From the NCBI GenBank assembly GCA_039588275.1, contig JBDHAC010000009.1, positions 1 through 64,000 of the forward strand: a DNA stretch of 64,000 nt, read 5' to 3'. Numbering within the stretch: position 1 is the stretch's first letter; each line of letters opens with the position of its first letter. The notes below the pieces were generated by a model. The model saw nothing but the letters and a program-made list of their open reading frames with translations. It searched no databases and was not told where the DNA came from. This document shows positions 999-28,441 of the stretch, piece by piece. The translations under genes and the position numbers were made by a program. The DNA is from Gemmatimonadota bacterium. Lineage in GTDB: Bacteria > Gemmatimonadota > Gemmatimonadetes > Palauibacterales > Palauibacteraceae.

Positions 999-2495
999 AT
1001 GAAAGACTCACGTAAGCATACGTCGCTCGCGTGGGCCGGTCTCGTGCTCCTCGCCGGCATCTTCGTGGGTTGTACCGACGAGGAAACCGTGTTCGTGGAG
1101 CGGCCCTTCTTCGATGACCCGCCCGCCAACGCCGGGGGTTTCCTGGGCTGGGACCAGCCAACTGAGAAGCTGACGGTGTGCGGGAACTGCCACGTCGGCC
1201 AGCAGAGCGGCTACGAGCTCACCAACCACGCCGATGCGTGGAACACGCTGCAGAATAACCCGAATGCGCAGGAATTCTGCGAGAACTGCCACACCGTCGG
1301 CGGCTACGGCAACCAGACGGACGAGGGCGGTTGGGCGACCACGGCCGATGAGCGCTATCTCGACGTGCAGTGCGAGAATTGCCACGGCCCCGGTGAGGCG
1401 CATGTGAGGAACCCGGATGCTGGCGCCAAGCCGCAGGCCGAGGCCGCGGTGGGGCTCGATACCGGCACGGGGTGCGGGGAGTGCCACGAGGGCACGCACC
1501 ACGGCTTCGTGGACGAGTGGCTCGACTCGCCGCACTCGCAAGTCGTCGGCTTCGCGGCAGCCCGGGCAGCGTGTGAGCGCTGCCACAAGGGTCAAGGGAC
1601 CCTCACGGCGTGGGGTGAGAACGCGGACTACGTCGAGAAGGATGGCGACGCGCTCGCGGTCGTCTGCGTCGTATGCCACGATCCCCACGATCGGACGAAC
1701 GAGCACCAGCTGCGCTTCCCGGTCAGAACGAACGTGATCGAGAACCACCTGTGTGCCCAGTGTCACGATCGTCGAACGGTTCCCGATCCCGGCTCGTCGC
1801 ACGGCCTCCACCCGCACGCGCCCGAAGCGGCATTGCTCGTCGGAGAGGCAGGTTGGTTCCCGCCGGGTGCGGGCTTCGACCCGGGTCAGATCATCGCCAC
1901 GCACGGAAGCGAGGGGAACCCCGAGCTGTGTGCGACCTGTCACCTGCCTTCGTTCGAAGTGACAGACCCGGGCACCGGCGACCACATCTTCTCCGTGACG
2001 GGGCACCTGTTCCGGCCGATCCCGTGCGTGGATGCGCTGGGGGTCCCCGAAGGGTTCGGGGTCGATTGCGGGCTCACCACCGCGGAGCGCTATTACACGG
2101 GGTGCACCGGGGGCGGGTGCCACTTCAACGAGCAGGCGGCAGCCTCGGCGATCACGTCCAAGTCCAACACGATCCAGTTCCTCGCGGACGAGGTGCACCA
2201 CCTGCTCGACATCGTGGATCCGAATGGTGAAGACCCGGGTGGCGAGATCGATGCCACCAATCCGTCGTTCACGGTGGCGGAGGGGGCGCTATTCAACCAC
2301 TCGCTTGCCGAGCACGGCGACGAGGATTTCGGGACGTTCACGGTGCTCGGATCGACCGCCCACAACCCGTTCCTGATGGAGGCGCTGCTGATCGCCAGCA
2401 TCCAGGCCCTCCAAGACGAGTACGGCGTGTCGGGGCGCATCGAGCGCGACTGGGACCTCGAGCTGCAGAAGGTCCTGAACAGCGTGCCCAGGTAA
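999..2495 (+). CDS. Multiheme c-type cytochrome lipoprotein (8 CXXCH + 1 CX4CH), OcwA/OmhA/c554-like
   Basis: ATG 999 after aggtggtga; signal peptide with lipobox FVGC; CGNCH, CENCH, CENCH, CGECH, CERCH, CVVCH, CAQCH, CATCH, CTGGGCH; VQCENCHGPG motif; helical C-terminus with HNP motif; no CXXCK. Confidence 0.9.
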   Translation: MKDSRKHTSLAWAGLVLLAGIFVGCTDEETVFVERPFFDDPPANAGGFLGWDQPTEKLTVCGNCHVGQQSGYELTNHADAWNTLQNNPNAQEFCENCHTVGGYGNQTDEGGWATTADERYLDVQCENCHGPGEAHVRNPDAGAKPQAEAAVGLDTGTGCGECHEGTHHGFVDEWLDSPHSQVVGFAAARAACERCHKGQGTLTAWGENADYVEKDGDALAVVCVVCHDPHDRTNEHQLRFPVRTNVIENHLCAQCHDRRTVPDPGSSHGLHPHAPEAALLVGEAGWFPPGAGFDPGQIIATHGSEGNPELCATCHLPSFEVTDPGTGDHIFSVTGHLFRPIPCVDALGVPEGFGVDCGLTTAERYYTGCTGGGCHFNEQAAASAITSKSNTIQFLADEVHHLLDIVDPNGEDPGGEIDATNPSFTVAEGALFNHSLAEHGDEDFGTFTVLGSTAHNPFLMEALLIASIQALQDEYGVSGRIERDWDLELQKVLNSVPR

Positions 2496-2500
2496 CGAAG

Positions 2501-2519
2501 GACAGGTTTGACAGCTATC
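2501..2519. repeat. Right arm of inverted repeat flanking the first cytochrome gene
   Basis: GACAGGTTTGACAGCTATC pairs with 970-987 over 17 bp. Confidence 0.6.
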
Positions 2520-2522
2520 ATA

Positions 2523-2548
2523 CGGGCCGAGGGGTGACCCTCGGCCCG
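2523..2548 (+). terminator. Stem-loop (mRNA stabiliser or weak terminator)
   Basis: Perfect 11-bp stem CGGGCCGAGGG/CCCTCGGCCCG with GTGA (GNRA) loop; no U tract follows. Confidence 0.5.
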
Positions 2549-2672
2549 CTCGCAAGGGGGTCAAGGCCGCGTTCGGAAGGTGACGGACGCGCCCGGCGGG
2601 ACGTCTAGTGTGCGGCGGCCCTCTCGACAATCGAAGAAGGGCGCACGGACTCTGAAAGCGGAGCGAAAGAAC

Positions 2673-3077
2673 ATGACCCGAATCGGCCCGATTGCGGCCA
2701 TTATCGCCCTCTGCGCTGGGCTCATCGCGACGACCACCGCCATCGCTCAAGAAGCGCCGGCGAAACCACCCGTCGTCCAGCACGATCTCGAGGGGCGCAG
2801 CGCGTGCCTCGCTTGTCATGGCGGCGCGATGGAGGCGATTCCCGCCGTTCCGGAGAGCCACACCAGCCGCCCCGACGAGACGTGCCTCTGGTGCCACGCC
2901 GCCGGCGCGCAGATCCAGACGACCGACCCGAAGACGATCTCGCACGATCTCGAAGGTCGCAGCGCGTGTCTGATGTGCCATGCGGCCGGCGTCATGGAAG
3001 CCATCCCGGATGTGCCCGCGACGCACGAGGGAAGGGCGGACCAGTTCTGCACGCTGTGCCACCAGACGGCGGGCTAA
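2673..3077 (+). CDS. Small periplasmic tetraheme cytochrome c made of two tandem diheme repeats
   Basis: Signal peptide ending AIA-Q; CLACH, CLWCH, CLMCH, CTLCH; unit HDLEGRSACLxCH...MEAIP.VP..H..R....CxxCH occurs twice. Confidence 0.9.
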   Translation: MTRIGPIAAIIALCAGLIATTTAIAQEAPAKPPVVQHDLEGRSACLACHGGAMEAIPAVPESHTSRPDETCLWCHAAGAQIQTTDPKTISHDLEGRSACLMCHAAGVMEAIPDVPATHEGRADQFCTLCHQTAG

Positions 3078-3185
3078 GGCGAATCGCGCGACGCGTTCGC
3101 GCTCGACATAGATAGCGTTGGGCGGCCGACGAGCGCCTGATCGTGCTTGTCGGAGTGCCCGCCCAGGCTCGGGAGACGGGGCCTG

Positions 3186-3653
3186 ATGGAGAAGGAGGCG
3201 GCACGAAAGAACCCGCGGCTTGATCTTAACGGCCTGCTTCTGGCTGCCGTCGTCCTGCTGATGATCACGGGCGCCGCCCTCGCGGTGGCCCTCTACGTCC
3301 TGCCCGGCGAGCACCTCGACGTTCCCGAAACACAACCCGCGATTCGCATCGAGAGCGAAGAGCACTTCATGGTCGGGTCGAGTCGCGTCCAGAATCTGGG
3401 CGAAGAGGTCATCCTCGTCGTGCGCCGCGCCGAGGCCGACTACCACGCATTGCAGGGGATCTCGCCGGCTGATGGGTGCATCCTGCGTTGGGATGAAGAA
3501 TCGCTACGGGTCGTCTCACCCTGCACGCATGCGGTGTACGATCTGCGCGGGAACGTGGTTCGGGGACTGACCCGCGAGCCGCTCCATCGGTATCCCGTTT
3601 ACGTCCGGAACGGAGTCGTGTATGTCGCAACACGGTCGGCTGCGGGCGGCTAG
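3186..3653 (+). CDS. Degenerate Rieske-fold protein lacking [2Fe-2S] ligands
   Basis: N-terminal TM helix, Rieske-like C-terminus (YDLRGNVVRG...PLHRYPV); box I SPADGC and box II SPCTHA in place of CTHxxC and CxCHxx. Confidence 0.8.
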   Translation: MEKEAARKNPRLDLNGLLLAAVVLLMITGAALAVALYVLPGEHLDVPETQPAIRIESEEHFMVGSSRVQNLGEEVILVVRRAEADYHALQGISPADGCILRWDEESLRVVSPCTHAVYDLRGNVVRGLTREPLHRYPVYVRNGVVYVATRSAAGG

Positions 3654-4929
3654 GCGTCGCGTCTCGGCCTGGCTGGGCCAGTTCCGGGCCGACGTCAAGG
3701 CGAGCCTGGATCCCGGCCTGCTGCGAATCCTGCGGTTGTTCGGGCTAGCCTACGGCCCGATTCACCGCCGGGTCCCGATCGACCAAGCCCTCCGTGAGGT
3801 CGTCCGCAACCCGGTGCCCTCGCACGTCGGGTGGCCACACCTGTTCGGTTGGGTGACGTACCTCCTGTTCATGATTCTCGTGGTGAGCGGAGTCCTCCTC
3901 GCGCTCTACTATCGTCCGGCGGTCGGCGAGGCATACGCGAGCATACAGCACATCGTGTCGGACGTGCGCATGGGCTGGCTAATGCGTGACATGCATGTGT
4001 GGGCGGCCAGCCTGATCGTGATCGCCGTCCTCGTGCATATGGGGCGCGGGTTCCTGTACGGGGCCTATCACCCACCACGCGAGACGGTGTGGCTGGTCGG
4101 GTTGATTCTCTTGCTTCTGATCCTCGCTTTCGGGGCTACCGGATACCTCCTCCCCTGGGACCAGTGGTCCTACTGGACCGTGACGGAAGCCCTCAACACG
4201 CTCGGCGCCATGCCGATCGCGGGCAACTTCCTGGTGCGGATCCTGACGGGAGCCGAGTTCGTCTGGGGTGCGACGCTGAGCCGATTCTTCGCCATCCACG
4301 TGATCATCCTGCCGTGGCTCGTTTTCGGCCTCCTGGGCTTTCACATCAGCATGGCCAGGCGGCACGGTCCCGCACCGCCTGTACGCGGAGCACCGAAGGA
4401 CGATCCAGGCGTGCCGTTTTACCCGACGCACCTGTTGCGCAACTTCGTGGTCGGCGTGCTGGTCACAGCGGCGGTCATCACCCTAGCGGCGATCTACCCG
4501 AGACCAGTCGGCGACCCGGCCAACCCGCTCCAGCTGCCAGAGGAGATCGTCTCGACGTGGGTGGTGGTGGACGTCACACGCGCCCTGCTTCATTACCTGG
4601 GCCCATGGGGTCTGGGTCTGGTGACCCTGCTCGGGGTCAGCCTGGGCCTGATCCCGTTGTTCGATCGGAGAGGGGGGAAGCGGCTGCGGGAACGCCCTGT
4701 GGCCGTGGCGCTGGCCTCGACGTTCTTCCTCGTTTTCCTGGCAGCCTGGGTGGCCGGTCGTCGCCTGCAGGCGCCGCCGGCGCCCGAACTCCTCACGCCG
4801 GCCCTCGAGCAGGTCGCTCCGTCCGACGCTGGCACGCCGATACCTGAGCCCGGACCCGAGCCCGTGTGGCCGGCGCCGCCTCCGGATCCGCAGCCGGATG
4901 CGCCGCACGAGGGAGGGGGCGGCTCGTGA
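3622..4929 (+). CDS. Cytochrome b (bc-complex type) with degenerate Qo site
   Basis: Four heme b His (RDMHVW...VHMGR; AIHVII...FHISM), GYLLPWDQ; the PEWY position reads STWV (4552-4563); Pro-rich C-tail. Confidence 0.9.
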   Translation: MSQHGRLRAARRRVSAWLGQFRADVKASLDPGLLRILRLFGLAYGPIHRRVPIDQALREVVRNPVPSHVGWPHLFGWVTYLLFMILVVSGVLLALYYRPAVGEAYASIQHIVSDVRMGWLMRDMHVWAASLIVIAVLVHMGRGFLYGAYHPPRETVWLVGLILLLLILAFGATGYLLPWDQWSYWTVTEALNTLGAMPIAGNFLVRILTGAEFVWGATLSRFFAIHVIILPWLVFGLLGFHISMARRHGPAPPVRGAPKDDPGVPFYPTHLLRNFVVGVLVTAAVITLAAIYPRPVGDPANPLQLPEEIVSTWVVVDVTRALLHYLGPWGLGLVTLLGVSLGLIPLFDRRGGKRLRERPVAVALASTFFLVFLAAWVAGRRLQAPPAPELLTPALEQVAPSDAGTPIPEPGPEPVWPAPPPDPQPDAPHEGGGGS

Positions 4930-6179
4930 GGTCGCTCGCACGCTCGGCGTGGGTCGGCCTCATGACCGCCGTGCTGTTGGCGCCGGCGGCGCCGCGCGCC
5001 GTCTCGGCGCAGCAGACACCCCGCCTGAGCGCCCACCCGGACTCCGTGTACGGGTGCATCGTGTGCCACGCGGACAAGCGGAGGGCGTTCGTGCTTGGGG
5101 TGCACTCCGAGTGGGGGATCCGTTGCAGCGACTGCCACGGGGGCGATCCGCGGGCGTTCGAGATCGCGGACGCCCACGTCGGACGGTTCATCGGACACCC
5201 GGAGAAGCTCGAAACAGTCCAGATCTGCAGCACGTGCCACTCGAGCGTCGACCTCATGCGGCAGTACGGCATCCCGGCTGACCAGATCGCGGAGCTGCGG
5301 TCCAGTCGGCACGGACAGCTGCTCCTCGAGCAAGGGAACGAGGACGCGCCCACATGCACGGACTGTCACGACGCGCACACGATCCATCGACCGGACGATG
5401 CGCGGAGCAAGACGCATCCGACTGCCATCCCGGCCACCTGTGGGCGGTGCCACGAGGACGCCGGCCTTATGGGACGGTATGAGTTGCCCACCAACCAGTT
5501 CGAGGAGTATCGCTCGAGTGCGCACGGCCAGGCGCTCTACGACGAGCTGAACTTCGCCGCGCCCAGTTGCATCGGCTGCCACGGCTCGCACGCGGCGCTG
5601 CCGCCGTCCGTCACCGAGATCTCCAACGTCTGCGGCCAGTGCCACCTGCTCGTGCGCGAGGCCTTCGGCGGGGGACTCCATGGCGCGGCAGCGGCCGGCG
5701 GCGCCCTCCCGGGTTGTACCGCGTGTCATTCCAACCACAGCACCGAGCCCGTGCCGATCGACGGGATAGCTGACACCTGCACGTCGTGTCACGATGCCGA
5801 TACGGACGTGGCCGTGCTCGGGGAGGAGATCCAGGAGCGCGTGATACGCGCGAACTCGCAGATGGAAGAGGCCGAGAGCGCGCTCGAGGAGCTGGTGCGG
5901 GCCGGACGCCCGGTGGAGGACTATCGCTTTCGTTTTCAGAGCGCGCGCACCGCGTACGAGCAAATCGCTCTCGTGCAGCATAGCCTCGATCTGGAACAGC
6001 TCGAAGACCTGGGTCTGCGCGTGGCGTCGGTTTCCGGGGACATCCGGGCCGCCGCCGAGGTCAGCGAGGAGCGCAGATGGGAGCACCGGCTGCTCCTCAT
6101 CCCGGTGTGGTTCTTCGCGCTCGCCGCGATCGCGTTCGCGAGCTTCAAGCTGCGGACGAACACTGCGGAGGGTCCGTAA
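4926..6179 (+). CDS. Nonaheme cytochrome c with C-terminal coiled coil and membrane anchor
   Basis: GTG overlaps the upstream TGA; signal peptide; 9 CXXCH; C-terminal TM helix; paralog of 19218-20543. Confidence 0.9.
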   Translation: MRSLARSAWVGLMTAVLLAPAAPRAVSAQQTPRLSAHPDSVYGCIVCHADKRRAFVLGVHSEWGIRCSDCHGGDPRAFEIADAHVGRFIGHPEKLETVQICSTCHSSVDLMRQYGIPADQIAELRSSRHGQLLLEQGNEDAPTCTDCHDAHTIHRPDDARSKTHPTAIPATCGRCHEDAGLMGRYELPTNQFEEYRSSAHGQALYDELNFAAPSCIGCHGSHAALPPSVTEISNVCGQCHLLVREAFGGGLHGAAAAGGALPGCTACHSNHSTEPVPIDGIADTCTSCHDADTDVAVLGEEIQERVIRANSQMEEAESALEELVRAGRPVEDYRFRFQSARTAYEQIALVQHSLDLEQLEDLGLRVASVSGDIRAAAEVSEERRWEHRLLLIPVWFFALAAIAFASFKLRTNTAEGP

Positions 6180-6181
6180 CC

Positions 6182-8191
6182 GTGGGTCGCGTGAGCTTGT
6201 GGCTGCGGAGCCTTTCGAGGCGCGCCCAGATCACGGTCCAGGTGGGCGTCGGCCTCGTGATCGTGCTCCTGCTCGGCACGGTGGGCTTCGTCGAGTACAG
6301 CGGGCAGCCGAGCTTCTGCCTCAACTGCCACATCATGGAGCCCTACTACGAGTCGTGGCAGACCTCCACGCACAACGATGTCGCCTGCATCGAGTGCCAC
6401 TACGCGCCCGGCGTCAAGGCCGAGGCGATGGGCAAGTTCCAGGCAGCCAACCAGGTGGTGAAGTACGTCACGGGTGCATACGGGACGAAGCCGTGGGCGG
6501 AGATCGAGGATGCGGCCTGCCTGCGGTCGGGGTGTCATTCCGAGCGTAAGCTGGAGGGCGTGGTCGCGTTCCGGGGGATCCGCTTCGACCACACGCAGCA
6601 CCTGGGGCAGCTGCGTCGCGGCAAGCAGCTGCGCTGCACGAGCTGCCACTCGCAGATCGTGCAGGGCGACCACCTGGCCGTGACCGTGTCGACCTGCAAC
6701 CTGTGTCACTTCAAGGACCGACCGGCGGGCGAGCCCATCGCGGGCTGCACCGGCTGCCACCAGACACTCCCGCGGGTTGAATCGCCGGCGGGCTTCGTGG
6801 TCGATCACGATCAGTACGTGCAGGATCTCACCTCGTGCACGGGGTGTCACGCAGAGGTCACCGTGGGCGCGGGGGAGGCGGAGCGTGATCGGTGCTTCAC
6901 ATGCCACAACCGGCCGGAGCGCGTGGCGGAGTTCGACGACGTCACGCTCGTGCACCAGGTGCACATCGCGCAGCACAACGTGGAGTGCCAGCAGTGCCAC
7001 ACGCCGATCGAGCACCGACTGGTCGCGCTCGAAGCCACGTTCGAGCTGGACTGCCAGGGCTGTCACCAACGCGCGCACGATGAGCAGCGACGCATGTACG
7101 CCGGCATTGGCGGACACGGTGCCGAGGACATGCCGAGCGCGATGTATCAAGCGCGTGTCTCGTGCAAAGGGTGTCATGCCCTGCCGACGGAGATCCGCGG
7201 CCACGAGGAGGTGCAGTTGGCCGGCGAAGCGACGTGTCTGTCGTGTCACGGCATCCGCTACGCCAATATCCTCCCCGCGTGGCAGGACGGCATCCAGGGG
7301 CGCGTGACCCGCGTAGCAGGCGTGGTGAGCGGGGCCCGCCGGACGCTGGGATCGGCCTCCGTGGCCGGGCGCGCGGCGGCGGACAGCCTGATCCGACTGG
7401 CGGAGGAGAACGTCGAGTTCGTCAGTCGCGGCAGGGGCGCGCACAACATCGCGTATGCCGATCAGCTTCTGGTGGCGGCCCTGGCCCTCGTCCGAGATGC
7501 GGTCCAGCAGGGCAGGTTGCCGTACACGGAGCCCGACGTCGCGCTCGGCCCAACCGTGGGGGAGAACGTGTGTCTGCGGTGCCACCTGGGGCAGGAGCGC
7601 CGCCGGGTGGATTTTCAGGGCGGCGAATTCGACCACGGCCCGCACGTGCTCGGCGGGATGACGTGTTCCAACTGCCACACGTCCCTCGACCAGCATGGGG
7701 GCACGACCCTCTCGGACCGGGCCTCGTGCGAGGGGTGCCACCACGGCCAGGTGGAGCCACTGGTCTGCGGTCGTTGCCACGAGGGGCCAGGTGGGGCTCC
7801 CGCGGCGGTGCTCCAGACCCCGGTCGGGCAGTTCTCGCACACGGTGCACCGGGAAGGCGGCTTGCCCTGCGCCGTGTGCCACACGGCGCCCGACATGAGC
7901 CCGGAGACGTCGGTGTGCGAGGGCTGCCACGCGCTGCACCACCAGCCTGAGGCGTCCTGCGTGGCCTGTCACGCGGAAGGTGCCCTCGCCAGCCACCCGC
8001 GTGCCGCGCACGAGGGGTGCGAGGTTTGTCACGGAGAGCGTGTCGCAGGCATCACGCAGTGGACCCGGAGCGTGTGCACGGTCTGTCACGTGGACCGCGT
8101 CGAGCACAACCCGCCGATGGATTGCGTGACGTGTCACAGGATTCCGGCCCTGGGCGAGCCCGACCCGGACCAGGCCGAGGAAGGGAGGTGA
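6182..8191 (+). CDS. NapC/NirT-headed membrane-anchored 22-heme cytochrome c
   Basis: GGAGG then GTG 6182; N-terminal TM; NapC-like PSFCLNCHIMEPYYESWQTSTH...CIECH; 21 CXXCH + CLRSGCH. Confidence 0.9.
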   Translation: MGRVSLWLRSLSRRAQITVQVGVGLVIVLLLGTVGFVEYSGQPSFCLNCHIMEPYYESWQTSTHNDVACIECHYAPGVKAEAMGKFQAANQVVKYVTGAYGTKPWAEIEDAACLRSGCHSERKLEGVVAFRGIRFDHTQHLGQLRRGKQLRCTSCHSQIVQGDHLAVTVSTCNLCHFKDRPAGEPIAGCTGCHQTLPRVESPAGFVVDHDQYVQDLTSCTGCHAEVTVGAGEAERDRCFTCHNRPERVAEFDDVTLVHQVHIAQHNVECQQCHTPIEHRLVALEATFELDCQGCHQRAHDEQRRMYAGIGGHGAEDMPSAMYQARVSCKGCHALPTEIRGHEEVQLAGEATCLSCHGIRYANILPAWQDGIQGRVTRVAGVVSGARRTLGSASVAGRAAADSLIRLAEENVEFVSRGRGAHNIAYADQLLVAALALVRDAVQQGRLPYTEPDVALGPTVGENVCLRCHLGQERRRVDFQGGEFDHGPHVLGGMTCSNCHTSLDQHGGTTLSDRASCEGCHHGQVEPLVCGRCHEGPGGAPAAVLQTPVGQFSHTVHREGGLPCAVCHTAPDMSPETSVCEGCHALHHQPEASCVACHAEGALASHPRAAHEGCEVCHGERVAGITQWTRSVCTVCHVDRVEHNPPMDCVTCHRIPALGEPDPDQAEEGR

Positions 8192-8195
8192 GGAC

Positions 8196-9503
8196 GTGCG
8201 CCCTTGGACGGGGGTGCCGGTCGTTCTCTTCCTCGCCTCGGTAGGCTGGCTCGATCCACCCGCGCGCGCGGCTGCGCAGGACGTCGCGTGTGAGGCATGT
8301 CACGGGAACCGGGCGTTCCTCGCAGGCAAGACACCCACGCCCGCGCAGGACTCGGCCCTGTTCGTGCCCGACGCGTTGGTCTCCGAGACTGTGCACGCGA
8401 ATCTCCCGTGTGCGGCATGTCACCCCGCCCCTGCCGAGGGCTATCCGCACCCAGCTCCGGCCGCTCTCCCCTGCGAAACCTGCCACGCGGAGGCGGGGCA
8501 GAAGTGGGAGATCTCGATCCACGCCGAGGGCGTCGACGGTGAAACCCACGGCGCCCGGTGTGTGGACTGCCACACCCCGCACGAGGTGTACCGAGCGGAC
8601 GACCAGCGGGCGGAGACGCACCCGCTGAACGTGGCCGCGATGTGCGGGCGGTGTCACGCGGACGAGCACATCATCGACGAGTACTTCACGGCCCCTGAGG
8701 AGACTCAGGCGCGGGTCGCGGTCGAGCAGTTCCACCAGACGGTGCACGGCACGGCGCTGTCGCGCGCAGGCCTGGCGGTCTCCGCCACCTGCAACGACTG
8801 CCACCGGGGGCACGATGTCCTGCCCGGTTGGGATCCCCGATCGTCGGTGCACCGCGATCACGTCGCGGCCACCTGCGAGGAGTGCCACGTGGGGATCCGG
8901 GAGCGCTACGAGCGCTCGGCACACGGAACCGCAGGTCCGACCGTAACGTCCAGCGGCGAAATCCGACAGCCGCCGGTGTGCACGGACTGTCACACCTCGC
9001 ACCAGATCGTGCGGGCGGACGAGCCGGGGTGGTTCGTGGGAGTCGTCGAGGAGTGCGGAGCCTGCCACCAGCAAGTGTACGACACCTACTTCGAGACGTA
9101 TCACGGGCAGGTCACCGCGCTCGGGTTCGCGCTCACGGCGAAGTGCAGCGACTGCCACTCCCCGCATTTGATGCTGCCCGCGTCGGACCGCGAGTCCACG
9201 GTCCACCCCCGGAATCTCGTCCGCACCTGCCAGCAGTGTCACCCGGAGGCGAACGCGAGCTTCGTTCGCTACTTCGCGCACGGCGATCACCGCGACCGTG
9301 AGCGTTTCCCGGTGCTGTTCTGGACCTGGGCGATCATGACCACGCTGCTCGTGAGCGTGTGGTCGTTCTTCGGCCTTCATTCCTTCTTGTGGCTCGGACG
9401 CGTGGCGATCGATCGGATCCGGGGGATAGGCCCGCACTCGTACCATTTGCCAGGCGGTACCCAGCCGATCAAGCGAGAGAAGAAGGGGAAGGGGGACGCG
9501 TGA
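8196..9503 (+). CDS. Undecaheme cytochrome c with C-terminal TM helix (CbcL-like c domain)
   Basis: Signal peptide; 11 CXXCH; AKCSDCH...HGDH..RERFPVLFW matches the C-terminal heme block of 10351-13182. Confidence 0.9.
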   Translation: MRPWTGVPVVLFLASVGWLDPPARAAAQDVACEACHGNRAFLAGKTPTPAQDSALFVPDALVSETVHANLPCAACHPAPAEGYPHPAPAALPCETCHAEAGQKWEISIHAEGVDGETHGARCVDCHTPHEVYRADDQRAETHPLNVAAMCGRCHADEHIIDEYFTAPEETQARVAVEQFHQTVHGTALSRAGLAVSATCNDCHRGHDVLPGWDPRSSVHRDHVAATCEECHVGIRERYERSAHGTAGPTVTSSGEIRQPPVCTDCHTSHQIVRADEPGWFVGVVEECGACHQQVYDTYFETYHGQVTALGFALTAKCSDCHSPHLMLPASDRESTVHPRNLVRTCQQCHPEANASFVRYFAHGDHRDRERFPVLFWTWAIMTTLLVSVWSFFGLHSFLWLGRVAIDRIRGIGPHSYHLPGGTQPIKREKKGKGDA

Positions 9504-10354
9504 GGAAGATCGCGTCCTCCGACCGTGGCCACGGTCCCTACGTGTGGCGCTTCAGTCCCTTCGAGCGGGTCCTCCATCTCATGGTGATCGTCTCGTTCTT
9601 CGGGCTGGTCATGACGGGCACGCCGCTCCTGTTCTCGCACACTCCGTGGGCGCGGGGGATGATCCGCCTGTTCGGAGGGTTCCAGGCGGCCGGGTACATC
9701 CACCGCGTGTGCGCGGTCCTCACCTTCGCCTACTTCTTCCTGCACGTCGGGCAGCTGACGTATCGGATCGCGAAGAGCTCGAACCGGAAACGGTTCTTCT
9801 GGGGACCGGACTCGATGGTCGCACAACCCAAGGACTTCCAGGACCTGGCCCAGACGTTCCGCTGGTTCTTCGGCAGGGGATCGCCGCCCCAATTCGACCG
9901 CTGGAGCTACATGGACAAGCTCGATTACTGGGGCGAGGTCTGGGGAGTGGCGGTGATCGGCGGCTCTGGGCTGGTCCTCTGGTTCCCCACGTTCTTCTCG
10001 AAGCTACTTCCCGGTTGGATGTTCAACGTCGCGACGATCATCCACGGCATCGAGGCCCTACTGGCGGCGGGCGTGATCTTCACCATCCACTTCTTCAACG
10101 TGAACCTGCGCCCCGAGAAGTTTCCGATCGACGTGGTGATGTTCACGGGCCGCGCGACGCTCTCGTACATGAAGGAGGAGCACCCGCTCGAGTACCGCCG
10201 GCTGATCGAGGACAGCAGCCTCGAAGAGCGATTCGCCCCCGCGCCGACGAAGACGGCGTACGTGTGGTCGGTGTCTCTCGGCCTCGTGGGTCTGTCGATC
10301 GGGCTCTTCCTGATCGGATTGATCCTGTGGGCGCTGTTGTTCGGGGGAGGATGA
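9500..10354 (+). CDS. FdnI/HydC-type membrane cytochrome b (CbcL-like b domain)
   Basis: GTG overlaps the upstream TGA; RF...ERVLH, IHR, LHV, IIHG, IHFF histidines; several TM helices; FP.D.V.FTG motif. Confidence 0.85.
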   Translation: MRKIASSDRGHGPYVWRFSPFERVLHLMVIVSFFGLVMTGTPLLFSHTPWARGMIRLFGGFQAAGYIHRVCAVLTFAYFFLHVGQLTYRIAKSSNRKRFFWGPDSMVAQPKDFQDLAQTFRWFFGRGSPPQFDRWSYMDKLDYWGEVWGVAVIGGSGLVLWFPTFFSKLLPGWMFNVATIIHGIEALLAAGVIFTIHFFNVNLRPEKFPIDVVMFTGRATLSYMKEEHPLEYRRLIEDSSLEERFAPAPTKTAYVWSVSLGLVGLSIGLFLIGLILWALLFGGG

Positions 10355-13182: not shown

Positions 13183-13228
13183 GTCGGCCCGCATGAAAAA
13201 CGGGTCATTAAAGCTCTGGAGAAAAGCC

Positions 13229-14701: not shown

Positions 14702-16105
14702 ACACGGGAGCGAAGATGCGTAAGGTCGCGATGGTTATCGGGAGCGCGCTCCTGCTGATGGTCGCGAGCGGTATGGTCCTCTCGGGGATGGGTGCGCAGG
14801 AGTTCCCGCACGAGCGTCACGCGAACCTGTTTCCGACGTGTATGGGGTGCCACGCGGGGATTCCGGAAGGGGACGCGGCGACCGCGTTCTCGGTCGACCC
14901 CGCATTCTGCGGAGGGTGCCACAACGGGAACGTGCAGCCGGAGGTCGATTGGTCGGGACCGACGCCGGTCGCCAGCAACCTCGCATTCGGGCACACGGAG
15001 CACCCGACGTGGAGAGACGATGGAGATCGCGCGGAACACACCCAGCGTGTGCCTGGGTTGTCACGCTCCGAGCGCGGAGGAGCACCAGGCCGCCGGTGTA
15101 GATTGCGCGAAGTGCCATGTGCCGATTGCGGACGCGCCCGACTTGAGCGCGGAGCGGATCGCCGCGTTCCCGCGCCCGGCGGATCACGAGTCGGACGACT
15201 ACGTCGCCGCACACGGCGGCCTTGGCGAGGCCGATGCGCAGCGGTGCTCGGTGTGCCACGCGCAGGAGAGCTGCAGCCGCTGCCACGTCAACGCGGATCG
15301 GCTTCCAGCGATTCGCGACCTGTCGTCGGATGACCGGGTGGCGGGCCTGGTGGCCGGGACGCCCGGAGTGTGGCCCAGGCCGACCAGCCACGAGTCGGCG
15401 GACTGGCTGAACACGCACGGCGGACAGGCGGCGGAATCGATCGAGAGCTGCGCCAGCTGCCACGCCCAGGAGAGCTGCGCGACGTGCCATGGAGAGGAAG
15501 CCGAGCGGCTCGCCGACGGACTCTCGAAGCAGCGCCCCGGTGGCCCGCAGGGGGCTGGAACGGTGGCCGTGCGCCCACCCGGGCATACGCCGAGCTTCGT
15601 GACGGAGCACGGCACCGCCGCGGCCGTCGAGCTGCCGCAGTGCAACTCGTGCCATGCGGAATCGTTCTGTGCCGATTGCCATGATGGGCCTGCAGCTCCG
15701 CGATTCAACGTGGAGAGCGCGGCCGGCTTTCACCCGGCGAACTTCGTCACCCGTCACGGCGCGGAGGCGTTCGCCCGGCAGACGCAGTGCAGCTCGTGTC
15801 ACTCGACCGAAGTGTTCTGCCGTGACTGCCATCAGCAGGTCGGCATCGGCCAGAGGGGGACCACGACGGGTGGGGCGTTCCACGATGCCCAACCGGGGTG
15901 GCTGCTCGCCCACGGTCAGGCGGCCCGTCAGGGCCTCGAGACCTGCACGGGTTGCCACGCTCAGCAGTCATGTCTGAAGTGCCACTCGGCGAGGAGCGGC
16001 TGGCGGGTGAGCCCGCACGGTCCCTCGTTCGACCCGAGTCGGGTGCAGGACCGAAGCACCATGTCGTGCGGGATCTGCCACTTCTCGTTCCAGCTCGATC
16101 CATAG
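14698..16105 (+). pseudogene. 15-heme periplasmic cytochrome c interrupted by a frameshift near 15001-15020
   Basis: Frame from ATG 14698 gives a signal peptide, CMGCH and CGGCH; a further 13 CXXCH lie in the +1 frame ending at 16105. Could be a sequencing or assembly error. Confidence 0.8.
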
Positions 16106-16344
16106 CGGCCGCCGCCGGCCCCTGGCTGCCGGTGGACCGATTCCCCGGATGAGTCGCGAGGAGCGGAGGAGCAAGATAGGATAATAAGGGGTTGCGGGTC
16201 CATCAGTCGGGATCGCCCCCTCCGCGAGTCCGGCACCGGACCCGCCGCCCCGCCTGTGCATCTCGGCGTGACTGCGCCGAAAGAGAAGCTTCTGGTCGGC
16301 CGCCGCGGTTGGAGGTGGCGTCGGCAGACAGGAAGGGGGTTCAC

Positions 16345-17559
16345 ATGAACGCCCAAATCCAAGCCCACGCTCATCAGGGGCGCCGCGTGGTGTTCGCGGC
16401 GCTTTGTGGGCTGTTCGTCGGGTCCGCGAGCCTGGTGGGGCAGGCGGCGGCCGGGCCCACGCAGAACGCCGCCGCCGGGGCGGCGGTCTTCGGCTCCAAG
16501 GGCTGCGTCCAGTGCCACGCGATCAAGGCCATGGGTGGAGGGGCAGGACCCGATCTGGGCCTCATTGAGGAGCGCCGCTCGTTCTTTCAGCTGGCGGCGG
16601 CGATGTGGAACCATCTCCCCGCCATGCACGCGACGATGGCGGAGGCCGGTACCGAGCGCCCGAGGCTCTCGGCCCAGGAGACCGGTGATCTCATCGCCTT
16701 CCTGTTCACGCTCGATTACTTCGACGCGATCGGGAGCGCGGACAGCGGACGGGCCCTATTCGCCGAGAGGAAATGCGTGCTCTGCCATCAAGTGCAGGGC
16801 GCCGGAGGGGTGATCGGGCCCAGCCTGGATTACCTGAGCCAGTACAGTTCGCCCATGTTTGTGGCCGCCGCCATGTGGGGGCACGGCCCCGGCATGGCGG
16901 AGACGATGAGGTCTCTGCGCGTCGAGCGGCCCCGGCTTACCGGAAGCGAATTCCGGGATCTGATGGCGTTCTTCCAATCGGTCTCTGAAGCCTCTCACGG
17001 GGGACCGATGTACGTTTTGCCCGGACGCGCGGACGTGGGGCGAGAGCTGTTCAGCAGCAAGTCGTGCCTGCGCTGCCACAGCGTGCGGGGGAGCGGAGGG
17101 CAGATCGGACCGCCACTGGGTGGCCGGGGGCTGGAATGGAGCGCGTCCGACTTCGTCGCGGCCCTGTGGAACAAGGCGCCCTCCATGCAGGCGGCCATGC
17201 TCGCGGGAGGGATCTTGATCCCCGACCTGAGTGCGGAAGAGATGGCGGATCTCGTGGCCTACCTCTACTCCGTCAACTACTTCAGCGAGACCGGTGACAC
17301 GCGTCGTGGTCGCCAGCTCGTCACTCAAAAGGGCTGTCTGCAGTGTCACGGGCTCGATGCTCGCGGGGGGACGACGGCTCCCGACCTCGCCGAGATCACC
17401 GGGCTCGTAACCCAAACCGAGGTCGTCTCGGCGCTCTGGAGCCACACTACCAGCGGTGTGGAGACATCGGCAGGCGAGTTGGCCGGCTGGCCTGCGTTGA
17501 GCGCGTCGGACATGGCGGATCTGGTGGCCTTCCTGCGCGGCTTGCGACAGGCTCCGTGA
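16345..17559 (+). CDS. Four-domain class I-like cytochrome c (copy 1)
   Basis: Signal peptide; CVQCH, CVLCH, CLRCH, CLQCH, each in a G..LF..K.CxxCH...GP.L...W.H/K..M repeat. Confidence 0.9.
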   Translation: MNAQIQAHAHQGRRVVFAALCGLFVGSASLVGQAAAGPTQNAAAGAAVFGSKGCVQCHAIKAMGGGAGPDLGLIEERRSFFQLAAAMWNHLPAMHATMAEAGTERPRLSAQETGDLIAFLFTLDYFDAIGSADSGRALFAERKCVLCHQVQGAGGVIGPSLDYLSQYSSPMFVAAAMWGHGPGMAETMRSLRVERPRLTGSEFRDLMAFFQSVSEASHGGPMYVLPGRADVGRELFSSKSCLRCHSVRGSGGQIGPPLGGRGLEWSASDFVAALWNKAPSMQAAMLAGGILIPDLSAEEMADLVAYLYSVNYFSETGDTRRGRQLVTQKGCLQCHGLDARGGTTAPDLAEITGLVTQTEVVSALWSHTTSGVETSAGELAGWPALSASDMADLVAFLRGLRQAP

Positions 17560-17835
17560 CGCGGGCGCGCGCGATCACCATTGGGGGCTGGCTGGCTCTC
17601 GCTGCCCTGGCCGCCCCCTCGGCTGCGTTCGGCCAGCAACCGGCCGATGAAGGCTGTGTGACCTACCACGGCGCCCTCGGCGACGAGCGTCCTCGGACCC
17701 GGTCGAGAGCTTCTCCGAAGACGAACACCTGCTCCAACTGCTACCCGGCTCATCAGATCCTTCAGACGTCGGATCCCCAATCCAGCGGCTACCCACACAA
17801 CGTGGCTGGATTGTGTGGCGGGTATCAGGTGGACG
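17556..17835 (+). pseudogene. Decayed remnant of a nonaheme cytochrome gene
   Basis: GTGA overlap and signal peptide, then GCVTYHGALGDER, TCSNCYPAH and NVAGLCGGYQ, aligning to SCATCHSVLGDER, TCVSCHPAH and NVASLCGACH of 19218-20543. Confidence 0.8.
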
Positions 17836-17997
17836 TTTCAGCTGGATGCGCCTCAAGTTTGCGTTTTCAGAGCCTTTCGAGGCATGCTACGGTTGAAGAA
17901 GGCACTGAAGTACCCGAGGACCCGTTTGTGGTCCCGATGAGCCGATGAAGAACAAACGATGCTCCGGTCGGCGGTGCAGTAGGAAGGTGGTTCGCGC

Positions 17998-19221
17998 ATG
18001 ATCGCCCAGTCGCGTTGCAGAGTTCCGAGCCCTGATGCGGTGCGCAGGATCCTGCTCGGCGCCGTCCTGTCGCTCATGCTGCCGGCCGCGAATCTGCTCG
18101 CACAGGCAGGGCCTGGGCCGACGCAGAACGCGGCATCCGGCGCGAGGGTGTTCGGCACGAAGGGTTGCGTCCAGTGCCACGCCGTGCGGGGGCTGGGTGG
18201 CGGGGTCGGACCCGACCTCGGGCGGATTGAAGGGCGCAGGTCCTTCTTCCAGCTCGCCGCCGCCATGTGGAACCATCTACCGAGCATGCGGAAGAGCATG
18301 GAGGAGCTCGGTGTCGATTACCCCGAGCTTCATGCCCACGAGACGGATGACCTCATCGGCTTCCTGTTCACCCTCGACTATTTCGACTCGCATGGCGACG
18401 TGGATGCGGGCCGGCAGCTGTTTGCGGAGAAGAAGTGCGCGATGTGCCACCAGGTCCAGGGCGCAGGAGGTGTGCTCGGGCCGAACCTGGACTTCCTGGC
18501 CCAACACAGCTCGCCGATGTTCGTGGCGGCCGCGATGTGGAACCATGGTCCCGGCATGGCGGAGACGATGCGGACCCTCCGCATCCAACGGGCACCTTTC
18601 ACGGGAACCGAGTTCGGGAATCTCATGTCGTTCCTCGAATCGGTTATGGATCAGACCCCGCAGGGTCCTCTGTACGTGCTGCCTGGGCGCGCGGACGTGG
18701 GTCGCGAGCTGTTCTCGGAAAAGGGATGCATCCGCTGTCATGCGGTCCGTGGAGCCGGAGGCCAGATAGGTCCGCCACTCGGAGGGCGCGGGCGGGAGTG
18801 GAGCGCGTCGGAGTTCATCGCGGCCATGTGGAACAAGGCACCTTCCATGCAGGCGGCCATGCGGGCCGGAGGGATCTCGGTACCCGAGCTCACCGCCGAG
18901 GAGATGGCCGATCTCGTGGCCTACCTCTACTCCCTGGACTATTTCGGCGAATCGGGGACCCCGGCACGAGGTCGCCAGCAGCTCACACTGAAGGGGTGCC
19001 TGCAGTGCCATGCGCTGTATGGACGTGGTGGGAGGAGCGCGAGCGATCTAGGGGAGTCTGCCGGGCTGGTGACAACCACCGAGGTGGTGACGGCACTTTG
19101 GAACCACACGGTGATCGGTATGGGCGGCGGAACGGGTGAGGCCGCCGAATGGCCTGCGTTCAGCGCGGTCGAGATGGCGGACTTGGTGGCGTTTTTGCGC
19201 CAGCTCGGATCGACCCCGTGA
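17998..19221 (+). CDS. Four-domain class I-like cytochrome c (copy 2)
   Basis: CVQCH, CAMCH, CIRCH, CLQCH; colinear with 16345-17559 (shared YVLPGRADVGRELFS, WNKAPSMQAAM, AEEMADLVAYLYS). Confidence 0.9.
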   Translation: MIAQSRCRVPSPDAVRRILLGAVLSLMLPAANLLAQAGPGPTQNAASGARVFGTKGCVQCHAVRGLGGGVGPDLGRIEGRRSFFQLAAAMWNHLPSMRKSMEELGVDYPELHAHETDDLIGFLFTLDYFDSHGDVDAGRQLFAEKKCAMCHQVQGAGGVLGPNLDFLAQHSSPMFVAAAMWNHGPGMAETMRTLRIQRAPFTGTEFGNLMSFLESVMDQTPQGPLYVLPGRADVGRELFSEKGCIRCHAVRGAGGQIGPPLGGRGREWSASEFIAAMWNKAPSMQAAMRAGGISVPELTAEEMADLVAYLYSLDYFGESGTPARGRQQLTLKGCLQCHALYGRGGRSASDLGESAGLVTTTEVVTALWNHTVIGMGGGTGEAAEWPAFSAVEMADLVAFLRQLGSTP

Positions 19222-20543
19222 ACCATCCGTCCTCGCACGGGATCAGAGGCGGACTGATCCTGGTCGCGCTCCTCGCGTCGTGGCCGGCCTCCGGCCAGGA
19301 GCCAGCCGAGCAGTCCCCACAGGAATCCGCCGAGCAGCCCACCCAGCGACCCACGGGCAGCTGCGCGACGTGCCATAGCGTACTGGGAGACGAAAGGCTC
19401 GCCGGTCCTGCGGCGCGTTTCCCCGAGGACATCCACGCTGCCCGAGGATTCGGTTGCAGTGCCTGTCACGGCGGCAACCCGGCGGTCATGGGAGCGGAGG
19501 CGATGGATCCCGAGATGGGGTACATCGGAGCGCCCGGACCGCGGCAGGTCCCCGACGTCTGCGGAAGCTGCCACTCCAGTCTTCCGTTCATGCGCCGCTT
19601 CAACCCGTCCACGCGCGTAGACCAGGTGTCGGAGTACTGGACGTCGGTCCATGGCCAGCGGCTTGCGGAGCTGAATGATCCCGGGGTAGCGACGTGCGTT
19701 AGCTGCCACCCGGCCCATTCCATCAGACCTGCGGCCGATCCGCAGTCCACGGTTCACCCGCTCAACGTCGCGAGTCTGTGTGGCGCGTGTCACTCCGACG
19801 GCGCGCGCATGGCGGGCTACGGCATCCCGACGGACCAACAAGAGAAGTACGAGCGCAGCAAGCACTGGCAGATCATGTGGGAAGAGGGCGACCTCTCCGC
19901 GCCAACCTGCAATGACTGCCACGGAAACCACGGCGCAGCGCCGCCCGGGATCTCCTGGGTCGGGAACGTCTGCGGTCAGTGCCATGCGGTCCAGGGGCAG
20001 CTCTTCGGCAACAGTTTCAAGAGCAGCATGTTCACGGTGATCGGTGCCCCGGGGTGCGCCACCTGCCACGGCAATCACGAAATCGGACCGACAAGCGACG
20101 AGATGCTCGGCGCGCAGGGTCAGGCCGTGTGCACGCGCTGTCACACGCCCGAGAGCCGTGGAGGACAGTCGGCCACGGAGATGCGGTCGCTCATTGACTC
20201 TCTACACGAGAGCTTCGAACAGGCGAACTCCCTGCTGACCAGAGCCGAGGAGGCCGGGATGGAGGTGAGTGAGGCTCAATTCGGCCTCCGCGATGCGACG
20301 AACTCCCTCATCAAGGCGCGCACCGTCCTCCACTCGTTCTCCCTTGATTCCGTGCGTGCCGCCGTCGAGAGTGGCTTCGAGGTCACGCTCGCCGCCCACG
20401 CGAGGGGGGAAGACGCCCTCAGGGAGTTGCGCACACGGCGCGTGGGACTCACCGTCTCGGCTGCCATCATCCTCGTGCTAATCGTCGGCCTCGTCTTCAA
20501 GATTCGCGAGCACGAAGGGGTTGGTGTTAAAACGGAGCCTTGA
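19218..20543 (+). CDS. Nonaheme cytochrome c with C-terminal coiled coil and membrane anchor
   Basis: GTGA overlap; signal peptide; 9 CXXCH; C-terminal TM helix. Confidence 0.9.
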   Translation: MNHPSSHGIRGGLILVALLASWPASGQEPAEQSPQESAEQPTQRPTGSCATCHSVLGDERLAGPAARFPEDIHAARGFGCSACHGGNPAVMGAEAMDPEMGYIGAPGPRQVPDVCGSCHSSLPFMRRFNPSTRVDQVSEYWTSVHGQRLAELNDPGVATCVSCHPAHSIRPAADPQSTVHPLNVASLCGACHSDGARMAGYGIPTDQQEKYERSKHWQIMWEEGDLSAPTCNDCHGNHGAAPPGISWVGNVCGQCHAVQGQLFGNSFKSSMFTVIGAPGCATCHGNHEIGPTSDEMLGAQGQAVCTRCHTPESRGGQSATEMRSLIDSLHESFEQANSLLTRAEEAGMEVSEAQFGLRDATNSLIKARTVLHSFSLDSVRAAVESGFEVTLAAHARGEDALRELRTRRVGLTVSAAIILVLIVGLVFKIREHEGVGVKTEP

Positions 20544-20564
20544 TGTCGCGGGGGGGGAGGAGCG

Positions 20565-21035
20565 ATGGCAGCAGAGAATGCGCGTTCGAAGTCCACACAT
20601 TCAGCGTCTACACGTCGGCGTTTCGTCAATTGGATTCTGGGTACCAGCGCGGGGGGCCTCGTCCTGTCGGTCCTGTACCCGACCACGCGTTACCTTATCC
20701 CGCCCGAGGCGGCAGAGTCCACCGCGTCGACCGTAACGCTCCAGATATCACCGGACGAGATCGGCCCCAACACGGGTCAGATCTTCAGGTTCGGAAGTCG
20801 CCCGGGCATCCTCATCCGCACTCCCGACGGAGACCTGCGCGCGTACGAAGCTATGTGCACCCATTTGGATTGCATCGTCCAGTATCGGGACGATATCAGT
20901 CGGATCTGGTGTGCTTGCCACAACGGGCACTACGATCTGAACGGGATCAACATCCAGGGTCCTCCCCCGCGACCGCTCCAGCGCTTCACCGTGAACGTCC
21001 AAGAAGACAGGATCGTGATCGGGAGGGAATCGTGA
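20565..21035 (+). CDS. Rieske [2Fe-2S] subunit of a bc-type complex
   Basis: Tat motif TRRRFV, TM helix, CTHLDC (20856-20873), CACHNG (from 20910), GPPPRPL. Confidence 0.95.
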
Positions 21036-21084
21036 CCTTGAGCGCAGAAGTGCCCAGACAGGCCCGAGCGGGAGACTGACGGGC

Positions 21085-22182
21085 GTGCGCACCTGGGACA
21101 GGATGGCGCGCGACGCGAGTCGGTGGTTGGAGGACCGGCTGGGCTTGTCCGCGCTCGGCCGGATCGCGAAGAAGAAGGAAGTCCCGGTCCACCGGCACAC
21201 GATCTGGTACTACCTGGGCGGGATGACGCTCTTCCTGTTCGCGATCCAGGTGGCGACCGGCGTACTCCTGCTGTTCTACTACCGTCCCAGCGCGACAGAG
21301 GCCTATGAGTCCGTGCAGTTCCTGATGACGGACGTGCAGTTCGGGTGGCTGATCCGCTCGATTCACTCGTGGGCGTCGAACCTCATGATTCTCGTCTTGT
21401 TCTTCCACCTGTTCAGCGTCTTCCTGCTCAGGGCGTATCGTCCCCCGCGGGATCTCACGTGGTACACGGGGATGGCGCTGTTCGGCATCACGCTCGCGTT
21501 CGGGTTCACCGGCTACCTGCTTCCGTGGAATCAGCTCGCCTTCTTCGCCACCCGCGTGGGAACGCAGATCGTGGGAGTGGTGCCGTGGATAGGCGAGGGC
21601 TTGCTGCGCGTCGCGCGCGGCGGGGACGACGTGAGCGGCGCCACGCTGACCCGCTTCTACGCGATCCACGCGGCGGTCCTTCCAGCCCTGATCGTGATCC
21701 TCCTCGGTCTGCACGTCTACCTGGTGCAGAGGCACGGCATGAGCGTGCCGCCCAGCGTCGAACGGGAAGGGGGGTCGAAGCGCTCACTGCCCTTCGTCCC
21801 GAGCTTCCTGCTGCGAGATCTTGTGGGCTGGCTGGCGGCGCTGGCGATCGTGGCGGCGTTGGCGGCCTATTTTCCGGCCGAGCTGGGAGAGAAGGCGGAC
21901 CCCTTCGCGCCGGCGCCGGCCGGGATCAAGCCCGAGTGGTACTTCATGTTCATGTTCCAGACCCTCAAGTACCTCCCGGCGCACATCCTGTGGATCGAGG
22001 GCGAGGTGGTCGGGGTCGCCGCGTTCGGGATCGCGGCCCTGCTTCTGTTCCTCGCGCCGGTCATTGGCCGCCCGAGACGCGACGGCAGGCCGAACCGGGT
22101 CATCACGTGGATCGGCGTGGGGATCATCGTCTACATGATCGTTCTGACCATCCTCGGATATACGGCCAGTCCAACGGCCTGA
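21085..22182 (+). CDS. Cytochrome b of a bc-type complex (canonical)
   Basis: Four heme His, [12 protein letters not shown] (21931-21942). Alternative start ATG 21103. Confidence 0.95.

Positions 22183-27091: not shown

Positions 27092-28441
<1,350 letters not shown>

Follow-up and report, generated by a model that had tools for sequence, protein, structure and literature searches.

A cluster of multiheme cytochrome genes lies at 999–22182 on the plus strand of the window analysed here, a 64,000-nucleotide stretch at the start of contig C9 (GenBank JBDHAC010000009.1) of a Gemmatimonadota bacterium (assembly GCA_039588275.1; 4.1 Mb, completeness 85.8%). The original prediction, made from the letters alone, took this locus for a self-contained system of extracellular electron transfer, which could link the quinone pool to the cell surface through a beta-barrel and a multiheme lipoprotein. 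Listing of open reading frames (ORFs) and a motif scan give 16 co-oriented genes and a decayed remnant (17556–17948), lettered A to Q in Table 1. The plus-strand ORFs carry 104 CXXCH and 2 CX4CH heme motifs, and 4-bp stop/start overlaps (GTGA or ATGA) occur at 4926, 9500, 10351, 14698, 17556 and 19218; the recount reproduces the earlier figures exactly, and all six overlaps are present. The heme-motif density of the locus is far beyond chance. Among six-frame ORFs of at least 60 aa, the whole genome contains 239 CXXCH motifs, of which 104 fall inside these 21 kb, and no ORF elsewhere in the genome holds more than 8.

In Pfam and NCBIfam searches the locus matched Rieske, cytochrome b, NapC/NirT and b561 domains; molybdenum (Mo), nickel-iron (NiFe) and heme-maturation families were without a match. 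The motif scan found no CXXCK in the locus ORFs. These absences had been claimed beforehand, and no catalytic family of the kind expected in a soluble-substrate reductase scored above cut-off in Pfam or NCBIfam. The word self-contained is not supported, since heme-maturation genes sit outside the locus, on contigs C84 and C27, and the cytochrome gene next to the barrel carries a frameshift as assembled here. On C84 (234–6914), heme-maturation genes stand beside an octaheme cytochrome and ferredoxin-type and NrfD-like proteins, as read by eye. The host genome also has several heme-copper oxidase genes and molybdopterin families, together with an apparent alternative complex III (ACIII) on contig C62, again read by eye, so that the host is probably a facultative aerobe. 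A promoter/terminator scan gave signal at chance level, Rfam gave no match, and no tRNA was found. The nearest clusters in the protein atlas are unnamed and mostly from Gemmatimonadota.

Table 1. Genes of the multiheme locus, with coordinates in the window
Gene	Coordinates	Strand	Product and features
A	999..2495	+	Nonaheme (8 CXXCH + 1 CX4CH) lipoprotein, OcwA/c554-related; candidate surface terminal cytochrome
B	2673..3077	+	Small tetraheme c7-like cytochrome (4 CXXCH; PF14522, E 1.3e-6), signal peptide; candidate periplasmic shuttle
C	3186..3653	+	Membrane-anchored Rieske-fold protein without [2Fe-2S] ligands or Tat motif; disulfide pair SPxDGC...SPC kept
D	3622..4929	+	b6-like cytochrome b, four heme His, S[TS]W[VI] in place of PEWY, no heme ci Cys
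E	4926..6179	+	Nonaheme cytochrome c (9 CXXCH) with a single hydrophobic membrane helix at its C-terminus; paralog of O
F	6182..8191	+	22-heme cytochrome, N-terminal membrane anchor, NrfH/NapC-type head (PF03264 over cut-off)
G	8196..9503	+	11-heme cytochrome (11 CXXCH), C-terminal helix; N-terminal half of split CbcL-like protein
H	9500..10354	+	FdnI/HydC-type cytochrome b561 domain (PF01292, 33.5 bits, cut-off 30.1); C-terminal half of split CbcL-like protein
I	10351..13182	+	CbcL/MtrH/MtoC-like fusion: 19 c-hemes (CXXCH) + b561 membrane domain (PF01292, 31.4 bits)
J	13229..14701	+	Plug-less outer-membrane beta-barrel (model), ~22 strands, unnamed family
K	14698..16105	+	Periplasmic cytochrome, signal peptide; 15 motifs over two frames, 16 hemes in relatives
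L	16345..17559	+	Four-domain class I cytochrome c (4 PF00034 stretches), first of tandem pair
M	17556..17948	+	Decayed copy of the O N-terminus left by a duplication, no longer with heme motifs; 50% identical to O over 40 aa (E 1e-10)
N	17998..19221	+	Four-domain class I cytochrome c (4 PF00034 stretches), paralog of L
O	19218..20543	+	Nonaheme cytochrome c (9 CXXCH), C-terminal membrane helix; c subunit of canonical module
P	20565..21035	+	Canonical Rieske protein: CxH, CxxH, Tat motif (PF00355 over cut-off)
Q	21085..22182	+	Canonical cytochrome b: PEWY, four heme histidines, no heme ci cysteine

The barrel gene and its conserved neighbours

The product of J was modelled by AlphaFold2 on its family alignment (mean predicted local distance difference test, pLDDT, 85.4). 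The model is all-beta from residue 26, with about 22 membrane strands counted by eye, and because the first strand already begins at that residue the barrel appears to have no plug. Foldseek and VIA-align both matched it to outer-membrane barrels, TonB-dependent transporters first. The best VIA-align match was 5T3R (Z 18.5, root-mean-square deviation (rmsd) 5.2, 378 residues aligned), and MtrB (6R2Q) aligned with Z 16.6 and rmsd 4.5 over 351 residues at 8% identity. Within the family, 58 aligned members gave no NCBIfam match, only three weak Pfam matches in one member each, and no match to the MtrB/PioB family in either database at E 0.01; the J profile had no match among PDB sequences. J thus models as a large plug-less outer-membrane barrel of an unnamed family, and the doubt raised in the original prediction, that 13229 might not model as such a barrel, did not materialise. 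Its ratio of nonsynonymous to synonymous substitution rates (dN/dS) is 0.10–0.24. In 58/58 members of the family the first hairpin, which is long, holds an invariant Cys70/Cys76 pair, and a FELWTIW loop is likewise invariant; the cysteine hairpin and the loop are candidate contact sites for K or A.

Next to the barrel stands the cytochrome gene K, which adjoins it in 78 of the 79 barrel loci and in 62 of them is a single ORF with at least 16 motifs. Heme density is about one per 28 aa. K has no match to TIGR03508 (decaheme MtrA/DmsE), and its profile matched nothing but an ACIII subunit and, in HmcA-type cytochromes, the N-terminal region. Compared with the related loci L001 and L006, the gene here has a 32-bp deletion near 15008, by which one heme motif is lost and the frame is shifted, leaving 2 and 13 motifs in two frames where relatives have one 16-motif ORF. 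It is intact in G001, a genome of the same genus, and in G015. None of the contig pieces from three sequencing runs covers 15010–15143, and the deletion may be either a strain mutation or an assembly error.

Of 60 orthologs of the lipoprotein A, 59 carry a lipobox pattern and 59 keep Cys25. Its closest sequence match in the PDB is OcwA (6I5B, E 2.6e-8). OcwA is a nonaheme cell-surface reductase that exchanges electrons with electrodes, iron oxide and shuttles; structurally it belongs to the NrfA/c554 group and has two open hemes under His-His motifs, with slow nitrite reduction (1 per minute) and hydroxylamine turnover (PMC6703420). A similar His-His motif follows heme 4 of A, matched to that of OcwA by eye, with the first His in 58/60 and the second in 36/60 orthologs. 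Outside the heme motifs, Cys343 and Cys357 are invariant in 60/60 orthologs and likely form a disulfide.

This neighbourhood is found well beyond the host. The J profile matched 108 of 251 sampled Gemmatimonadota genomes, and the barrel's neighbours across the phylum are a 12–16-heme cytochrome and usually an OcwA-related nonaheme lipoprotein; the synteny check proposed with the original prediction has therefore been made, and barrel, 16-heme cytochrome and lipoprotein proved conserved as a neighbourhood. The 79 barrel loci are mostly from Gemmatimonadota (up to 92% identity), with two from Eisenbacteria and one from Krumholzibacteriota, and an 8-motif ortholog of A lies within the fetched flanks of 54. 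The smallest common form consists of A, a membrane-anchored 17–18-heme NapC-type cytochrome, J and K. As judged from their sequences, these four could in principle span the envelope. Some genomes have two or three barrel-cytochrome sets (L021, L047, G139, G193 and G224). L006 keeps C to Q in the same order as here and other loci rearrange the modules. The full 16-gene order is thus a lineage feature: the modules are spread through Gemmatimonadota, and the locus, no one-off, is their assembly at the level of a lineage.

Two Rieske/cytochrome b modules and other candidate entry points

The locus holds two Rieske/cytochrome b modules, and one of them (3186/3622) lacks the catalytic motifs. The canonical module O-P-Q has the iron-sulfur (FeS) ligands, the twin-arginine translocation (Tat) motif, the PEWY motif of the quinol oxidation (Qo) site and four heme histidines. 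Ligands are intact in 34/34 rows of P-type Rieske proteins and P[ED]W[YF] is present in 48/48 rows of Q; O precedes P and Q in most loci holding them. The second module, C-D-E, is a bc-type paralog. Among the best 120 of 197 homologs of C, none has the canonical Rieske ligand motif (CxH, CxxH), nor does any of 28 locus rows; both ligand cysteines are replaced by Ser or Ala in 120/120, and both disulfide cysteines are kept in all of them. A Tat-like motif is found in 0/112 C homologs (8 were too short to test) against 24/33 canonical copies, the remaining nine of which mostly have Arg-Lys variants. Tat export serves cofactor-carrying proteins, and the loss of the motif in C fits a protein with no cofactor to export. 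C still has a Rieske fold, its best fold match being 8HN2 (E 6.6e-8). Other fold matches include the NirD-type chains 4AIV and 3C0D; NirD is a known cluster-less Rieske fold. In a search of 1.84 billion representatives, full-length proteins above 100 bits are without the ligands, and ordinary Rieske proteins score below about 92 bits. Four distant Rieske-fold representatives (P0243, P0244, P0262 and P0299) also lack a full ligand set, and two of them have an N-terminal zinc-ribbon-like segment.

The cytochrome b of this module, D, keeps all four bL/bH heme histidines (27/27 rows). P[ED]W[YF] occurs in 0/40 rows; S[TS]W[VI] stands instead, and the conserved proline is also gone. Its closest solved protein is cytochrome b6, D and Q are both nearest to the b6 type, and both lack the heme ci cysteine. 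Where cytochrome b6 has a Tyr before that cysteine, the D family keeps a His (27/27), and directly behind the lost PEWY site an Asp is conserved (26/27 rows). Because FeS ligands and PEWY are both lost, C-D-E as read from its motifs cannot run a Q cycle. Purifying selection acts on C and D: pairwise dN/dS is 0.14–0.26 for C, 0.09–0.21 for D and 0.07–0.13 for P and Q, values drawn from few close pairs with one genome present twice. These values for C and D (0.09–0.26), and the absence of stops in 25 phylum matches, led us to reject the reading of the two genes as pseudogenes. A tree of cytochromes b (43 of 93 rows) places the D-type rows on one side of a branch with 100/100 support; since its long branches meet and it has no outgroup, we make no claim on the origin of the D type. 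In one locus, L104 of genome G168 (2751–7323), the gene cluster that holds the cluster-less module also contains two pentaheme cytochromes and a further Rieske/cytochrome b pair, whose Qo motif is PDWY.

In the host order, 25 of 40 relatives have C, as do 25 of the 251 phylum genomes (host included). All of these 25 phylum genomes also have J, 21 within 30 kb, against 108/251 overall, a comparison in which related genomes do not count as independent. Among 34 loci sequenced far enough, 33 have C, D, E and F side by side, a count that leaves out short loci and includes some genomes twice. At E 1e-20, C had no match in 81 genomes of the phylum of L078 or 81 of that of L026, sets that held no positive control; the named members of C-type clusters are Gemmatimonadota.

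In the mechanism that we favour for the module, electrons from quinol would cross the two b hemes of D and enter the c-type hemes of E or F directly; C, the Rieske protein without a cluster, would have a structural role only. On this sequence evidence we put C-D-E-F slightly on the favourable side of even as a non-bifurcating quinone:cytochrome c oxidoreductase. The path from bL to c heme with no FeS cluster between them is not explained by it. A scaffold role for the module is less favoured. The main alternative is that C-D forms half of an asymmetric bc complex with the canonical Rieske/cytochrome b, in which one Qo site feeds both b-heme pairs and low-potential electrons pass to the E-F chain. 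E and O are paralogs (31% identical), D keeps every heme ligand, and Q occurs in all 26 C-positive genomes of the host order, often within 10 kb; this last point also counts against a module acting on its own. Across the phylum, however, 7 of 25 C-positive genomes have no Q match at E 1e-100. Five Q-less genomes were examined: four have another intact Rieske/cytochrome b pair, which again weighs against the non-bifurcating module, and the fifth, G224 (96% complete, 4 contigs), has D as its sole PF00033 match. Thus D can occur without a canonical partner. The C-D-E-F unit also inverts and moves relative to O-P-Q, and Q is found without C in many loci. These observations lower the case for an obligate C-D/P-Q heterodimer, and we regard the asymmetric complex as unlikely.

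The remaining candidate entry points are of two families. I joins a multiheme c domain to a b561 domain, and G and H are the split form of the same design; they are fused into one protein in relatives such as L007, L010 and L018. CbcL-type proteins are quinone-reactive entry points of known systems (PMC6295460).

F belongs to the NapC/NirT family. Its head matches NrfH (2J7A, E 4.5e-8), with the N-terminal helix and the CXXCHXM first heme present. NrfH Met49 and Lys82 are kept and Asp89, an acidic residue with a role at the quinol site, is replaced by Gln. The position is Gln in 15 and Met in 5 of 20 F orthologs and acidic in none, and a quinol site of F's own is therefore doubtful. The idea that F lost this Asp because D feeds it does not distinguish anything, as the 17–18-heme NapC-type proteins of loci without C are mostly non-acidic there too (by eye). 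The original prediction counted three kinds of quinone-interacting module. All three families are present, but one Rieske/cytochrome b pair lacks Q-cycle capacity and the NapC head lacks the NrfH acidic residue. We would rather list four kinds of candidate entry: O-P-Q, I plus split G+H, F, and C-D-E.

A predicted electron conduit across the envelope

We consider it likely that the locus is a porin-cytochrome conduit, whichever way electrons run in it, and on balance electron export is the more probable main use. The membrane modules would oxidise quinol and deliver electrons to periplasmic multiheme cytochromes (B, L, N and the F chain). These would pass them to the 16-heme K, predicted to sit inside barrel J, and from K they would reach the OcwA-related lipoprotein A, predicted to face outside, which would reduce insoluble or high-molecular-weight acceptors. 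O-P-Q, G+H and I, and C-D-E-F may be alternative entries for different redox potentials. This picture is based on gene content, motifs, the modelled barrel fold, synteny and purifying selection, from which we infer all protein contacts, surface exposure, direction and substrate. Those conditions set beforehand for refuting the porin-cytochrome reading that could be checked did not refute it, and the original interpretation is partly supported.

Several points weigh against it. A barrel fold by itself shows no function, and the top matches of J are TonB-dependent transporters. The match of A to OcwA is confined to short stretches, and its lipobox is silent on which membrane, or which face of it, the protein occupies. 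As the partner of the barrel is frameshifted in the assembly, the wire may be broken in this strain. Finally, direction is not readable from sequence, because homologs of CymA and of CbcL/MtrH/MtoC occur in Fe(II) oxidisers and reducers alike (PMC6295460), just as the original prediction had cautioned.

The same wire could accordingly run inward or both ways: electrons donated by Fe(II), reduced humics, minerals or partner cells would come in at the barrel and reduce the quinone pool, and C-D-E-F or the CbcL-like proteins would serve as quinone reductases. Besides the homologs in Fe(II) oxidisers, the several heme-copper oxidase genes of the host would supply sinks, and a link to reverse operation has been drawn for Qo motifs other than PEWY, APWY for instance (PMC4122944). 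Against this, the solved protein most closely related to A is a terminal reductase, and the intact module has PEWY, typical of quinol oxidation; inward use as the reading of this locus is quite unlikely.

Another explanation takes the locus for a respiratory chain to a soluble substrate, with A catalytic at an open heme (nitrogen, sulfur, a metalloid oxyanion or a shuttle) and the barrel a substrate channel or assembly aid instead of an insulating sleeve. Such a substrate for A is possible by analogy, because OcwA turns over nitrite and hydroxylamine and A partly keeps its His-His motif. Both cytochromes b, D and Q, also resemble ExtP of a selenite/tellurite operon, with scores (186 and 212 bits) below the cut-off of 290. 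Against this stand the lack of a CXXCK, Mo or NiFe subunit in the locus and the low nitrite rate of OcwA, and the gene fixed beside the barrel encodes a dense 16-heme chain, not the partner of a transporter. We judge this explanation very unlikely. It is highly improbable that the hemes mainly store electrons, as a capacitor does, against fluctuations in oxygen and pass few of them to the outside: the very large heme load, the redundant entry modules and the oxygen-reductase-family genes of the host would suit it, but a store needs no lipoprotein and no conserved barrel with the dN/dS found for J.

If the conduit works as proposed, Gemmatimonadota, common in soil and sediment, would join the mineral or humic respirers, to which this widespread phylum is not reckoned at present. 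A broader proposal, which we hold tentatively and rate somewhat below even, is that about 40% of the sampled Gemmatimonadota genomes have their own, sequence-unrelated family of trans-envelope conduit. In a subset it would be fed by a new class of quinone oxidoreductase derived from complex III, in which Rieske cluster, Tat export and Qo motif were dismantled together and the b hemes lead directly into a 31-heme chain with no Q cycle. For bioenergetics C-D-E-F is a natural experiment, as its cytochrome b complex is conserved although the first step of the Q cycle is lost, and as the cluster-less module stands beside its intact counterpart here, the two can be compared side by side.

Some further features of the window accompany the locus. 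The segment 16345–20543 is a tandem duplication comprising L and N, with the decayed copy of the O N-terminus after L; both L and N are also found in L001 and only one of them in L006. Downstream, an M28 peptidase with a PDZ domain (22317–23642) adjoins the locus in about 12 related loci as well. It is followed at 25932–30655 by a monoheme cytochrome-like ORF, an NADP glutamate dehydrogenase (over cut-off) and an Ig/LVIVD choice-of-anchor B protein, and at 30725–34460 by three overlapping ORFs that by eye resemble the small, large and medium subunits of an enzyme of the CO dehydrogenase/xanthine oxidase family.

Comparison with known systems

The general architecture of the locus is already known, since porin-cytochrome clusters that include petB/petC have been reported in other metagenome-assembled genomes (MAGs) (PMC13264449), and Acidobacteriota and Verrucomicrobiota are reported to have conduits of divergent sequence whose cytochromes are OcwA-like (bioRxiv 10.64898/2026.05.27.727921). 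The reports found for Gemmatimonadota comprise MtrABC in a few MAGs, FeGenie-type matches to Cyc2 and DFE_461-465, and one CbcL homolog (PMC11316326, PMC8805035, PMC4411801, PMC6295460). The invisibility of J to Pfam and NCBIfam may explain why phylum surveys list few MtrABC operons and loose iron-gene matches (PMC11316326, PMC8805035). The keyword passages of PMC10581226 and PMC10469786 do not mention such a conduit or module, and the accessible text of the Qo-motif survey (PMC4122944) does not mention Gemmatimonadota. In a literature search that mostly left subscription papers and supplements outside, no description was found of the J family, of a cluster-less bc module or of a cluster-less Rieske protein as its membrane-anchored subunit.

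The Rieske/cytochrome b modules resemble b6f-type complexes, including those of anammox bacteria, in having a b6-type cytochrome, a membrane-anchored multiheme c subunit and a Rieske fold. The Rieske proteins of the anammox complexes bind clusters (PMC12954380). Unlike b6f-like complexes, C is without FeS ligands or Tat motif, D is without PEWY, and neither cytochrome b has the heme ci cysteine; the C-D-E sub-module fits no bc complex found described. I and G+H are like CbcL/MtrH/MtoC in their N-terminal c hemes followed by an FdnI/HydC-type b561 domain, a likeness judged from domain content, and their size and heme number lie in the range reported for that family (3–23 hemes, 416–1034 aa; PMC6295460). 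They differ in occurring as two copies, one of them split.

A is like OcwA of Thermincola potens (6I5B) in its nine hemes, c554-like N-terminal part and, by eye, the His-His after heme 4. It is unlike OcwA in being a Gram-negative lipoprotein in a barrel locus, its ninth motif is CX4CH, the second His-His is not conserved, and the match is patchy. With the Geobacter Pcc (OmbB-OmaB-OmcB) and Ext clusters and with PCC3/PCC4 the locus shares a three-part logic and a CbcL-like quinone module. The relation of J to OmbB is judged from family scans, in which none of the 58 members had an NCBIfam match. PCC3/PCC4 have a conserved five-helix inner-membrane protein with two WX3HX13H motifs, and the PCC4 cytochromes have 4, 5 and 10 hemes (PMC5566968); the membrane proteins here fall in PF00033 and PF01292, and the heme numbers differ.

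MtrCAB/CymA and MtoAB/PioAB are parallel in organisation: a large plug-less barrel stands next to a multiheme cytochrome of the periplasm, and a lipoprotein with several hemes and a membrane cytochrome of NapC/NirT type accompany them. Unlike MtrCAB, the barrel has only 8% identity to MtrB and lies outside the MtrB/PioB family, its partner has 16 hemes instead of 10, and the lipoprotein resembles OcwA, not MtrC. The strand number of J, about 22, compares with 24–32 predicted for MtoB/PioB (PMC5566968). The locus would work like MtrCAB/CymA or Pcc/CbcL, yet by sequence it stands outside the Mtr family.

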